Of a DNA stretch of 64,000 nucleotides, positions 12,560-58,124 are shown piece by piece (position 1 is the first letter of the stretch; every line of letters starts with the position of its first letter). Made by a program: the position numbers and the translations under genes. Under the pieces are notes generated by a model. That model made no database searches and was not told where the DNA came from. It worked only from the letters and a program-made list of their open reading frames with translations. Origin of the DNA: Eledone cirrhosa (Eukaryota); assembly GCA_964016885.1 (NCBI GenBank), contig OZ024750.1, positions 33,170,001-33,234,000 on the forward strand. The letters are read 5' to 3'.

Positions 12560-12782
12560 TATTAAAATAACAGATTAAAGTTTAAGCAAAGAATCGCTGC
12601 TTTCACCATTAACGGGATCTTCCCGTTAAGGGTGAAAGCAGCGATTCTTTGCTTAAAGTTTAATCTGTTATTTTAAGAAATATTTGCTCTACGGTTCTTA
12701 TATATTTGATATATTTTTATCCTTATCGAGCCCTGTTTGGATTTTAGTCTTCAAATTTATTATTATTACTATTATTATTACT
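12560..12782 (+). mobile_element. Palindromic mini-element, family F, with 3' extension
   Basis: Arms ~12562-12616 and 12622-12676, then an extension with the bulged hairpin 12686-12731. Flanked by (TA)n. Related pieces at 14850-14940, 23010-23080, 23165-23240 and 62580-62715. Confidence 0.75.
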
Positions 12783-13324
12783 ATATATATATATATATAT
12801 TTCGTTTCTGAATGATTGGCAACATGACCCTCCCAAAGCATAACAATACATATATATATATATATATATATATATATATATATATCACATAAAAAACGAA
12901 GAATCAGTGGTGCGACGACTAAGATTTATTAGACATATTACAATCGTTTCTCTGGCGACCAGCTCGAGGCACGATCGATGCAATGATCAAATCTGACTCT
13001 GATCACAAGATCCTCGGTTATGTCTCGATTCTACGAAACAGAGTTTCCAAATATATATATATATATATATGTATATATATATATATATATATATATATAT
13101 ATATATATATATATATATATATATATATATATATATATATATATATATATATATATATATGTACGTTTGTATGTATGTATGTATACATTTTTGTTAAATA
13201 TCATCTTGGTTAAGAGAGTGGGACTGGCTTTCTGCAGTGCCTTTGCTCACTATAAAAGCTTCACGGCACATGCATTGCTTTATATCTGGAGATCTCTCTG
13301 CACTTGTCATCACATGGTACCATG

Positions 13325-13495
13325 GGTCCAGCACTATGTGTCAATAATTGTCACAAGTGTAGTGTGTGTTTGTACCAGAGTTTTCAAGTCGCTGGCTGGA
13401 CTAAAAAGTCACACTCGTTCAGGGCATCGGTAGGAGTTCTCCTACATGGATATAAAGTAGTGGCCGTACTCGAAAACGAGTTGGCAGCCACCATG
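13325..13495 (+). mobile_element. RTE-like LINE 3' end (C2H2 zinc-finger remnant)
   Basis: HKCSVC/..[14 protein letters not shown] across a frameshift. Similar to the end of 54230-54770. Confidence 0.55.
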
Positions 13496-13769
13496 TATAC
13501 ATGTATATGTATGTATATAAAATATAGATATATATTTAATTATCTGCGATAAAATAAACCCAATATTGTTGGTTGTATATTGTACTGATAAACAATATTC
13601 TCTTCGATTTTTATTACAATGTCGTTCGTATTTAAATATTTTTATGGGAATATTGAATCTACAGAAGTATTTGACGGGTACTTAATTTTGTCTAAGAGGG
13701 AAAATGAAAGACAACATTGCTTATGATATGATATAGAATCAGAATACAAGTCGTAATATAAAGGGCGCA

Positions 13770-14385
13770 ATAATAGACATGTTATATAGCTCACTTCGAG
13801 TGGTACCAGGTTCAATATCCCTATATTCCTATATACCTAGATTCCTATACACCTATAGCCCTATATACCTATAACCCTATATACCTATAGACATGTTGTT
13901 ATATAGCTCATTTCGAGTGTTACCAGGTTCAATATCCCTATATTCCTATATACCTAGAGCTATTTATACCTATATTCCTATGTACCTAGATTCCTATAGA
14001 CCTATAGACCTATGTACCTATAACCCTATATACCTATAGACATGTTGTTATATAGCTCACTTCGAGTGGTACCAGGTTCAATATCCCTATATTCCTATAT
14101 ACCTACAGCTATTTATACCTATATACCTATATTTCTCTCTCTCTCTCTATATATATATATAGCCTTAAATACCTATATTCCTATGTACCTAGATTCCTAT
14201 ACACCTATAGCCCTATCTACCTATATTCCTATTGCTCTATATACATATAACCCTATATTCCTATATTACTATATACCTATATACCTATATACATATATTC
14301 CTATATATCTATATTCCTATAGCACTATATACATATATTCCTATATACCTATATACATATATTTCTATATACTTATATACCCTGG
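13770..14385. repeat. Three ~115-150-bp tandem units (ACATGTT..TATAGCTCACTTCGAGTGGTACCAGGTTCAATATCC) plus an 8-bp (TATACCTA/TATTCCTA)n tract
   Basis: Unit heads at ~13776, ~13890 and ~14039. Confidence 0.85.
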
Positions 14386-14495
14386 GCAAAGATGTGTTTT
14401 TTACTATTGCTTTGGATTGGCCAATACATTGGGAATGATATATAGTAAAAAGAAACTAGCATGGATGCCTCTTGTATATATATATTATATATATA

Positions 14496-14659
14496 TTTTT
14501 TTTTTAAATTTAGAAAGGCTTCTACAGAACTAGAACTATTTCATTCCGGAGCAATCATATATATATATATATATATATATATATATATATATATATATGA
14601 TTGCTCCGGAATGAAATAGTTCTAGTTCTGTAGAAGCCTTTCTAAATTTAAAAAAAAAA
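14496..14659. repeat. ~60-bp perfect inverted repeat with a (TA)n spacer (family D pLTR fragment)
   Basis: TTTTTAAATTTAGAAAGGCTTCTACAGAACTAG..GCAATCA-(TA)n-TGATTGC..AAATTTAAAAA. Related to 42405-42500. Confidence 0.85.
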
Positions 14660-54911: not shown

Positions 54912-55034
54912 CCCTCTTCCTGCTATATCAAGCGTTAACCTAATATATACCTTCTATATGCTGTACCGATTGTGTTGTTATTTCTGTTTACGTTTTACAT
55001 ACATACATATATATATATATACATATATTCAATT

Positions 55035-55245
55035 ACTAGGGCGGAATACTGAGTCTTCTTACTCTGGAGTTTTGCCTGTTTATCCCAAGGTCATCAGACA
55101 AGAAGTCGTCTGATGACCTTGAGATGTAATAAGCGAAACTCCAAAGTAACAATATTCACTATTTAGCCTTAATAAATGAATATTAAAACTTTGCTTCGGT
55201 AATGAGTACTCTTTTCTCGCAGCCGTCAACCTCATACGGATATAC
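55035..55245 (+). mobile_element. Diverged palindromic mini-element, family G
   Basis: Imperfect arms ~55035-55100 and 55106-55172, each carrying a hammerhead core. Related fragment at 15230-15285. Confidence 0.65.
55106..55152 (+). ncRNA. Minimal type-I hammerhead ribozyme, family G
   Basis: TCGT-CTGATGA-CCTT..AAGC-GAAA-CTCCAAAG-TA-ACAA. The mirror copy at 55055-55102 and the fragment at 15250-15272 give the consensus CTTGT..GAAACTCCAGAGTA-ACAAG. Confidence 0.55.
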
Positions 55246-56207
55246 ATACACACGCGCTCTTACACAAATATATATATATATATATATATATATATATATA
55301 TATATATATATATATATATATATATATTAGTTATGTAATAAACAACATAAGATAATCATTTCATTTACCAGTGGTTTCTTGAAAGCAGATAATGTATCTG
55401 TTTTCAGTCTTCAGAATGAATAAAAATCATGGTGTTTTTATTAAATATGGATTTGAAAACAAAATTTAAGAAATATGAAAGTGAGGCTGAGAAAAAAACG
55501 GGCGAAAAAGAAGTGGAGGATATATATATATATAAAAACAATAAATATCCAGAACGTAAACATACACACACTGAACCACGCGCATATACTTAAAAAGTAC
55601 GAAGACGTATATTTTTTCACATGAGCGTATTAGCACCTACAGAGAGGCACATAGATACATACGCATACATATACAAGAAGTAATAAATAAATAAAAACAA
55701 AAAATATACAAAGTCAAAAACAAAATAAAGACGTGTTGACAACGATAAGTATGAGTGTGTGGATGTGTGAGGGGGGGGGGGGGGGTATAAAAACAACTTT
55801 AAAATAAACAAGTACACGAAATGTGTATATACATAAATACATATATATATATATATATATATATACATAGATATACACATACATACATACACACGCGCAC
55901 ACACACATATACATGCATAGATAATCATACACACGTATAAAAACACACACACATAAGCATGTATATATATATATATATAAATATATATATATATAAATAT
56001 ATATATATATATATATAAATATATATAAATATATATATATATATATATATATATATATATATATATATATATATAGAGAGAGAGAGAGAGAGAGAGAGAG
56101 AGAGAGAGAGAGAGAGAGAGATGTGAAAAAATGGGGAGAAGAATACTGCATATATATATATATATATATATAATATAAGATCAAAATATGGTTAAAGGAG
56201 TTCCATG

Positions 56208-56278
56208 TATTTTATTATGCGCATTTCAAAAACAAACATCATCATGCAATAATATTTGTGTTTTCATCAGATAAAACA
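56208..56278 (-). ncRNA. Minimal type-I hammerhead ribozyme, family A (left arm)
   Basis: Exact mirror of 56383-56453. Confidence 0.82.
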
Positions 56279-56382
56279 GGAGAACATGATATGAAGGCTA
56301 AAAAACACTTGTGGATAGTGCAGTTTTAAATCAACAACTGCACTATCCACAAGTGTTTTTTAGCCTTCATATCATGTTCTCC

Positions 56383-56453
56383 TGTTTTATCTGATGAAAA
56401 CACAAATATTATTGCATGATGATGTTTGTTTTTGAAATGCGCATAATAAAATA
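56383..56453 (+). ncRNA. Minimal type-I hammerhead ribozyme, family A (right arm)
   Basis: TGTTTTAT-CTGATGA-AAACACAAATATTATT/GCAT/GATGATGTTTGTTTTT-GAAA-TGCGCA-TA-ATAAAATA. Stem II has 15 of 16 positions paired, stem III is the palindrome ATGCGCAT, AUA cleavage site. Confidence 0.82.
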
Positions 56454-58124
56454 CATGGAACTCCTTTAACCATCTTTTGATCTTATATTATGCATACTCC
56501 AGTCCTACAAACTGTAGAGTGCTTCTTATCCGATATTTGCATTGCTTTATTGTAATACAATAAAACTCACCTCCTACATTATATATATATATATATATAT
56601 ATATATATATATATATATATATATATATATATATGTATATATATACCTCCTACATTATATATATATATATATATATATATATATATACACACACACAAAA
56701 GTATAAAATAAACATACGTACACATATGCATGCGTGCAAAAATGCATATACAATAATACATATTCAAATATACATAACTAATAAGCTCTGTAGCCTACAT
56801 AGAGCACTCTTTTTTCCTGTACCTTTCCGACGGAATTACTTCATTTATATATATATATATATATATATATATAAGCTCGATAGAATAATGACGTAAATAT
56901 ATCTGTATCTGATATAAATGACCTGATATATGTAAGTCTGCATAATTTTATAAACTAGAATCAATAAGTATGTAAATCAAAACTACAAATAGCGAAACAA
57001 GTTTGTTAACAAACTATGAAAAATAACATTAAACAATAGAGAAATGACAGAGTATATGTAAAGTCAAAAATACGTAAATGAAAGGAAGACCAACAAAGAT
57101 TAATATAAAGCTTTGTATAGTTAAAACTGAATATGAGCTTAACTAAATTTAAAAGAAAATTATTTACTGAACTGATGAATGCAATATGCCATAAATTCTG
57201 CTCCAAGAATTTTATTGTATGAATGGACACGATATTGTCCTCTTCCTACGTCAGTCTGGAATTGTAATAAATCTTGTGAGAACAATCCCTGCAATAAACT
57301 GCTTCTATATCCAAATGTATGCTTTATGGGTCGTTAAACAATAAAATTATAAATCCGTTATTCACTACGCGAAAAATCAATACGTTTTAACATTTCGGGA
57401 AAAATGTGAGAAAGCAAAAATATCTTTGAAATAAATAAATAACATTGCAAATAATTATACAAAACACATATAAAATATTATATTCCCACAGCAAAAATAT
57501 TTACTTATAAAATTCTAAAATATTTATATAACATTCACATAAAGATAACATGGAGATTGAAACATTCATAGTCAAACAATTTGAAATAGCAAAGTGACTA
57601 CTAGTCATATTTTAGAATACCAGTAAGTTTTACTACGTCTGCTGAAATATCTTCTTACTCCGAGATGTAAATATATATATATAGTAGAATAATCGAGTAT
57701 CGAAAAATCGGCGCACGAGTTCACGATAAACAAAATTCGAAATGAGCGGCAGAGGGCTCAATAATTCAGATAAATCAGAGCTATAACTATAGTTAAAATA
57801 CCGTCACACATAGAACAAGTCTATAATCAACCATACGACCGAAAAATTGCGATCTGGAAGATTCGGGACACTCAGATAAAATATCAATAAATCAATAAAT
57901 CAAATGAATGTAAAAAGCATACCCGGACCCGCTAGAAAGATGGTAAATCTAGCTTCTTGGGTTTCTGTAAATCCTTAAACTGCCCTCTATCAGCTCACAT
58001 AAAAATATATAAGACTTATATATATATATATATATATATATATATATATATATATATATATATATATATATATATATATATATATATATATATAATAAAC
58101 GTAATCTGAGTTTTGCGAATATTA

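Follow-up and report, generated by a model that had tools for sequence, protein, structure and literature searches.

Fold-back insertions of Penelope-like elements (PLEs), retrotransposons that are the closest relatives of telomerase reverse transcriptase (RT), recur in a 64,000-nucleotide (nt) stretch of the Eledone cirrhosa genome (contig OZ024750.1, positions 33,170,001 to 33,234,000; hereafter the window). We compared these insertions with copies pulled from the whole 3.0-Gb genome, distinguishing families A, B, E and F of the Hydra clade from family G of another PLE clade. The two arms of an insertion end at two fixed 3' positions, X and T, and the X-to-T extension forms a one-sided tail. 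In the Hydra-clade families, X lies a few nt before a small hairpin, H1, and in tandem copies T lies at an equal offset before a homologous hairpin, H2. From the sequence record, and by analogy with an in vitro system, we consider it probable that the head-to-head Hydra-clade insertions arise when both strands of a cut (TA)n target prime reverse transcription of one RNA, one strand at X and the other at T. A first-pass annotation of the window had proposed two priming events on a nicked (TA)n, one at the RNA 3' end and one placed internally at X by the hairpin; the two events and the hairpin-placed start agree with the evidence below, but priming at the RNA 3' end is not supported as proposed.

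The A, B, E and F fold-backs are the 3' ends of Hydra-clade PLEs. In long copies, RT open reading frames (ORFs) are contiguous with the ends of all four families and contain the motifs RW.A, DKT, CxCX5C, CxxC and CxH, which bears out the PLE identity suggested in the first pass. The family A protein is encoded by a single ORF (800 aa from the ATG), with RWTA at residue 37, DKT at 123, CxCX5C at 659, CxxC at 759 and CxH at 787, in addition to YRDD and YFGST; the B, F and E proteins have RWRA or RWRT in place of RWTA. A motif scan of the family A protein found neither GxKF/Y nor CX2-5CxxC, and CCHH was absent by eye. The anatomy is likewise that of PLEs, with pseudo-long terminal repeats (pLTRs) from partial tandems, an inverted 5'-truncated copy and a tail on one side, and 392 of the 422 non-tandem 3' ends of the four families are bounded by (TA)n, indicating (TA)n insertion. 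Hammerhead cores are canonical in A and B, whereas by eye the first core of F is a variant and that of E is non-canonical; no hammerhead family appears among the 150 of 161 Rfam matches listed for the window, which are microsatellite-driven microRNA matches. DNA fold-back transposons and miniature inverted-repeat transposable elements have symmetric terminal inverted repeats with fixed ends, and this identity was rejected because the outer ends here are asymmetric (X versus T), the centres are variable 5' truncations and the arms are contiguous with RT ORFs. A Naiad or Chlamys identity was rejected on the C-terminal position of the endonuclease motif and the occurrence of hammerhead cores; those elements have an N-terminal endonuclease, a CxC domain and no canonical hammerhead (PMC8557442). 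The published Hydra-clade signature consists of RWK, DKG changed to DKT, an unconserved GxKF/Y, a CxCX5C linker, CxxC and CxH around conserved E and N, and no CCHH (PMC8557442). Placement in this clade is thus a sequence-based assignment from protein motifs and element anatomy.

The predicted structure of the family A protein (predicted local distance difference test score 88.5) has telomerase RT as its best structural match (Z 17.2, root-mean-square deviation 2.9, 260 aligned). Pfam and PDB sequence searches with this protein returned nothing useful, including no Pfam RT match, and sub-threshold Pfam matches among 26 of its relatives were to RVT_1 in 3/26 and to GIY-YIG in 3/26. The C-terminal GIY-YIG endonuclease is putative, its signs being the YFGST/YIG.T motif, a strand-strand-helix fold in the whole-protein model and the weak Pfam matches of the relatives. 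Family A is abundant and young, with 12,939 first-look candidates and 97-100% identity in all 150 scored matches, and an 821-codon open frame is kept in many copies.

Genomic copies were gathered as 120 loci with tail-containing queries, 60 with tail-free queries, 30 with ORF-start queries, 30 by pattern and 57 long stretches; most loci in the A, B, E and F terminus census came through tail-containing queries. The census, which left out the 30 ends without a TA boundary and 12 tandem run-ons, placed 385 of the 392 (TA)n-bounded 3' ends at X or T (A 125/127, B 90/90, E 104/104, F 66/71), the two sharp terminus peaks that had been predicted from the window. With a tail-free family B query, all 30 ends were at X or T (13 and 17, respectively); the equivalent family A query, in a search that skips common words, yielded no candidates. 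Six B rows at +32 in the offset table were treated as rule artefacts because the census has no B end there. Relative to H1, the last templated base across the genome is at -5 or -8 in A, -3 in B, -6 in E and -3 or -8 in F, and the last non-TA base at approximately -7 to -11; relative to H2, the last templated base at T is at -4 to -7 in nearly all copies, matching the X offset. TA microhomology at the X and T patches spans 2-7 nt, and is 3-7 nt for the ends measured from H1. Family B contains 20 TA patches in this region, and its ends use just the two that precede hairpins, so position counts and not TA content alone. Ends fixed a few nt before H1 and the exclusive use of hairpin-adjacent patches are what an internal start placed by the hairpin would produce. 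TA run lengths are alike at X and T ends (medians 8-15 units), giving no sign of one-sided TA synthesis.

Within the window, the match between forward and inverted arms reaches 56491 (A), 47553 (B) and 22637 (E), the final 3-5 bases being TA microhomology, and the last unambiguous base in these three families is 7-8 nt before the hairpin. The hairpin starts recorded in the first pass (56496, 47556, 22643 and 12686) are correct, as is the ending of the inverted arms just before them; past the short TA patch, every one of these inverted arms gives way to (TA)n. In family F, however, the arm reaches ~12682, and 12676, recorded as X, is the start of an AT patch. A spacing of "always" 6-10 nt describes the Hydra-clade families but not family G, in which the hairpin is at an offset of ~0 and the inverted arm at 45297 ends atypically. 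Three of the four copies recorded as solo are indeed solo, whereas that at 25200-25350 has an inverted tail arm at 25072-25166.

H2 has the form of H1: RCUC, an inner stem, a 2-nt 3' bulge, GAGY and RCU. In tandem copies, the sequence runs on through T into H2, 20-90 nt before the ATG, at an offset equal to that between X and H1. This arrangement was found at 23 of 30 ORF-start loci in family A, at two loci in B (L058, L142) and at three in F (L062, L063, L089). In family E, H2 was predicted beforehand and then found: a pattern search gave 36 matches, 28 of them with one common H2 junction that leads on to a complete H2 and then to a Hydra ORF, against 0 in a reversed control; because the pattern required RCTC, only the sequence beyond RCTC is a free test. 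The H1-H2 distances in the four families are 90, 92, 78 and 90 nt, and the tail is the H1-H2 spacer (78-92 nt). An inner stem of at least 3 bp beside the 2-nt bulge is present in 14 of 35 motif clusters, compared with 0-3 for controls with a slid bulge, and both U-A and C-G pairs are used; the hairpin structure is thus supported by covariation and not by the stability of single hairpins. By eye, the motif also occurs in the 3' ends of the published Hydra-2_Amil and Hydra-2_Ajap and twice before the ATG of Hydra-1_Ajap (PMC8557442 File S7), which are coral and sea-cucumber Hydra elements, and is doubtful in the remaining three of the six published Hydra consensi. A 3' half-motif search of the supplement to PMC8557442 showed no obvious Naiad or Chlamys terminal hairpin among the 28 of 54 places listed.

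Because T is internal in tandem copies, with H2 following at an H1-like offset, both starts look internal and hairpin-placed. The first-pass proposal that one strand is primed at the RNA 3' end does not fit this arrangement, which holds in A, B, F and E. In a version of that proposal, the RNA would end at T and be primed by way of a read-through (UA)n tail, as microsatellite-targeting long interspersed nuclear elements are; the hairpin would place X only, and H2 would serve translation or ribonucleoprotein assembly. Transcripts of this kind are expected because most copies do terminate at T beside (TA)n, and the T junctions are compatible with (UA)n pairing. We nevertheless regard this explanation as unlikely, given that H2 is homologous to H1 at an equal offset in four families, that one family G junction shows a duplicate of that family's own hairpin after T and that many ORF-length copies end at X, the linear transcripts of which would have no 3' T.

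Both outer ends could be classed in 147 head-to-head insertions, and in 142 of these one X is paired with one T (A 44, B 35, E 33, F 15, G 15), whereas independent choice of start would yield about half same-end pairs; 196 unclassified "B" pairs, which are microsatellite matches to the B reference, were dropped from this pairing. Inspection of the five same-end pairs showed that two continue into a tandem, that the palindrome of one (L248) extends into its flanks and that two are real. Both arms share one source, as variants at 46 family A loci are in both arms in 340 cases and in one arm in 22, compared with 18% sharing in random pairs. We propose that this pairing, together with the two fixed (TA)n-bounded ends, reflects two priming events on a cut (TA)n.

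The two ends might instead be generated by processing, in which a DNA intermediate would be cut by the GIY-YIG endonuclease at the TA-like patch preceding each hairpin sequence, the latter being what the enzyme recognizes ("EN-mediated resolution", PMC8557442). The X and T patches do resemble the (TA)n target, and the D. virilis endonuclease, as recounted in PMC11167929, needed the tail in plasmid DNA. However, X and T sites remain uncut in tandem arms, cleavage of DNA at each site independently would not produce 142 X/T pairs against 2-3 same-end pairs, the compensatory inner stems and fixed bulge point to a single strand, and by eye no orphan tails are seen beside X ends. Processing therefore seems quite improbable, and we infer that X and T mark initiation.

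The 5' ends of the two arms are independent. At 138 distinct junctions, the X arm is longer in 72, the T arm is longer in 50 and the arms are equal in 16; 62 of the 138 have 5' ends within 15 nt of each other, and 11 arm pairs do not overlap. The arms differ from each other by up to ~10%. Arms exceeding one unit are found on the X side, the T side or both sides, and as such arms pass the hammerhead, their template was presumably uncleaved or religated. Insert-free junctions have microhomology of at least 2 nt in 36 of 57 cases, compared with a null of 17.7%. The 5' ends cluster by family (E, 123 of 174 arms within 25 nt; B, 33 of 98), the clusters lying at -180 in A, -196 in B and -73 in E, and the four palindromes of the window are centred at or near such clusters, which could mark an RNA start or an RT stall; peaks at -187 in F and -417 in A are probably reference breaks and were not used. 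The arms show no 5'-end peak at the inferred hammerhead cleavage site, where one case, L121, was found.

These geometries bear on snap-back, a self-priming route of the kind proposed in PMC3846280, in which one cDNA folds back and is copied to X. It is geometrically compatible with 90 of the 142 insertions, the arms share variants and, as noted, nearby 5' ends are frequent. It fails at 49 of the 142 insertions, which fit neither direction (90 fit tail-first and 3 X-first), at the 11 pairs without overlap and at L121, in which a 3.1-kb X arm faces a 134-bp tail arm; later deletions could explain some of these but not plausibly all. The rule of one X and one T from the same source rules out self-priming as a general route, which we consider very improbable, but some short symmetric copies may still arise in this manner. 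Finally, it is very improbable that entire palindromes were templated by a small number of source RNAs already palindromic, or that they formed after insertion or in assembly. The repetition of 4 of 142 junctions and the palindromic flanks of L248 favor such an origin; against it are 138 distinct junctions, the divergence between arms, contigs from public runs (possibly of the source sample) that also end at T against (TA)n, and no ADAR-like (A-to-G-dominated) arm among 1107 alignments. L248 (C1:362768000-362777900) is a 9-kb palindrome including its flanks, with 1 difference in 2815 nt between its arms, and is possibly an assembly artefact or a later inverted duplication.

In the mechanism that we favor, priming at X and T from both strands of a cut (TA)n, an RT-endonuclease protein, probably as a dimer, would bind H1 and H2 of a tandem or circular RNA and cut both (TA)n strands. 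Each 3' end would then pair with a 2-7 nt UA patch ending 3-8 nt before a hairpin and be extended. The two cDNAs would stop independently and be joined at their 3' ends, giving head-to-head arms, and solo X or solo T copies would represent events in which one side failed. Binding, dimerization, cutting and priming are suggested by analogy, with support from the Poseidon_Ac (PAc) assay (PMC11167929).

Several observations weigh against this mechanism. Sampling was skewed to young, tail-bearing copies. Single hairpins fold weakly (z -1.9 to +0.2), the motif count of 5 in the window is inside the shuffled range (mean 2.5, max 8) and the outer R-Y pair covaries weakly (p 0.04 in one test and 0.13 in another). 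H2, being before the ATG, could be retained for another role. The two real same-end insertions, one T/T and one X/X, depart from the pairing rule, and the tail-first fit of 90 of 142 insertions is also what snap-back would give. Shared variants equally fit two RNAs of one source locus or gene conversion, two over-unit arms on one RNA would require strand displacement, and extra bases are found at 81 of 138 junctions, partly through mismatch to a single reference.

Family G, which we take to be Neptune-like, has a CX5CxxC linker and belongs to a different PLE clade; it follows the X/T rule, and its own hairpin is duplicated after T in one tandem junction. This would extend the rule across clades. 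We tentatively suggest, at somewhat less than even confidence, that endonuclease-bearing PLEs in general use a dimeric RT-endonuclease on two adjacent hairpins of one, probably circular, RNA, copying from both ends of a double-strand cut. If true, the tail, the inverted pLTR and the partial tandems would all follow from a single step.

Table 1. PLE-derived features of the window (H1, hairpin after X; X and T, fixed 3' ends)
Feature	Coordinates	Strand	Details
Solo family A copy	41..196	+	ends at X; (TA)n both sides
Hydra-type element	386..4579	+	4.2-kb, 5'-truncated, broken; RT remnant 398-1020; endonuclease remnant 2096-2296; hammerhead core 4380; H1-like hairpin; tail
Family F inverted X arm	12555..12622	-	
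Family F tail-bearing arm	12621..12772	+	long-loop H1 12686-12731
Family G mini-insertion	12800..12845		~14 nt of tail end, inverted, then ~32 nt up to X (compared by eye with G copies)
Family E inverted X arm	22523..22578	-	
Family E tail-bearing arm	22579..22713	+	H1 22643-22669; no (TA)n after T in this copy
Solo family F copy	22963..23077	+	ends at X
B-like two-armed insertion	25072..25348		tail arm minus, 25072-25166 (H1 25132-25154); X arm plus; no overlap
Second solo family A copy	45042..45203	+	ends at X
Family G fold-back copy	45297..45633		T 45633; usual X 45573; inverted arm ends at atypical site
Solo B-like copy	45797..45943	-	ends at X; 5' end adjoins dispersed repeat
Family B inverted X arm	47197..47365	-	intact hammerhead core at 47295
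Family B tail-bearing arm	47366..47637	+	X 47549-47553; T 47637
Family B hairpin H1	47556..47577	+	
Family A inverted arm	56170..56333	-	5'-truncated; 3' end at X against (TA)n
Family A tail-bearing arm	56333..56579	+	hammerhead core from 56391; X 56489-56491; tail to T
Family A hairpin H1	56496..56523	+	RCUC, inner stem, 2-nt 3' bulge, GAGY-RCU
H1-type hairpin, further family	56785..56808	+	tail ends at (TA)n 56846
Family F two-armed insertion	62577..62715		tail arm begins inside H1; no overlap

Other structures accompany the TA arrays of the window. The last 10 nt of the A tail recur in the flanking TA array at 56580-56665, as a separate mini-insertion or through re-priming. The 5' junction of the Hydra-type element recurs as a 43-nt inverted copy across ~64 TA units (215-257 and 386-430), and the inverted piece ends at neither X nor T. 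A perfect palindrome at 14506-14649, with a (TA)20 centre and symmetric ends, is related to a hammerhead copy at 42400-42497, and a near-perfect 186-bp palindrome with a 40-nt one-sided extension lies between TA arrays at 23745-24149, where no RCTC hairpin was seen. Further hammerhead-core matches of other families are near TA arrays at 34864 (-), 55110 (+), 6027 (-) and 11964 (+). Elsewhere in the genome, the tandem units at six loci (L062, L268, L269, L274, L287 and L294) are short, passing from the ORF start directly to the 3' untranslated region near the hammerhead, and resemble retrozyme-sized deletion derivatives. The window also contains an ORF remnant (35033-35545) that resembles the restriction-like endonuclease of a non-LTR retrotransposon, a dispersed repeat of ~190 bp resembling a short interspersed nuclear element (8730-8920 and ~20 other places) and two minisatellite arrays (31154-32249 and 37279-38994; 48- and 69-bp units).

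In L1 twin priming, both target strands prime on one RNA and produce an inversion, but the second primer anneals at variable sites and the pieces do not overlap. The PLEs described here would likewise use two strands on one RNA; in contrast, their starts are fixed ~90 nt apart and their arms copy the same RNA stretch. The Hydra clade of PMC8557442 is alike in its RWK-like, DKT, CxCX5C, CxxC and CxH motifs, a predicted hammerhead close to the 3' end, insertion into (TA)n, partial tandems, an inverted 5'-truncated copy and a one-sided tail. There, however, Hydra units are generally <3 kb and PLE tails are 30-40 bp and ascribed to endonuclease resolution, whereas here units are 2.5-4.1 kb and tails are 78-92 nt between twin hairpins; the word "hairpin" is absent from the main text of that paper. 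Penelope of Adineta vaga has similar head-to-head inverted pLTRs, an optional one-arm tail and junction palindromes, which were explained by self-priming on an antisense template (PMC3846280), but the non-overlapping and X-longer arms seen here do not fit that account. PLE hammerheads with circular RNA templates (PMC4209133) and non-LTR retrozymes (bioRxiv 10.64898/2026.07.22.740005) have type I hammerheads with a short helix III, and over-unit copies such as ours are explicable by a circular or multimeric RNA; the accessible portions of these works describe no initiation signal.

The closest parallel is PAc, for which both target strands were cut and extended in vitro, two internal RT starts bound the tail, a dimer is predicted and the target is AT-rich (PMC11167929). 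It belongs to another clade, and both of its starts, described as non-homologous to the DNA that is cut, fall within the ORF in a single AC-rich stem-loop; in our families, by contrast, two homologous hairpins lie in non-coding sequence and TA microhomology is 2-7 nt. No link of the two starts to the two strands or to an inverted arm was seen in the accessible account of PAc. The inverted pLTR and tail (PMC8557442, PMC3846280), two internal starts in one Poseidon PLE (PMC11167929) and the idea of a circular template (PMC4209133) were thus already known, and both PMC8557442 and PMC11167929 treat the way in which PLEs make their tails and inverted repeats as an open question. We found no published account of twin hairpins, of an obligate pairing of X with T or of evidence excluding snap-back in a search that covered few subscription papers and no figures. 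To these systems, the genomic record adds a cis-signal of two small hairpins, exact start positions and a pairing rule of one X and one T from the same source. Because many copies keep a full-length ORF, the model is directly testable with the published in vitro assay, and a portable hairpin that fixes where RT begins on (TA)n could also interest developers of genome-writing tools.

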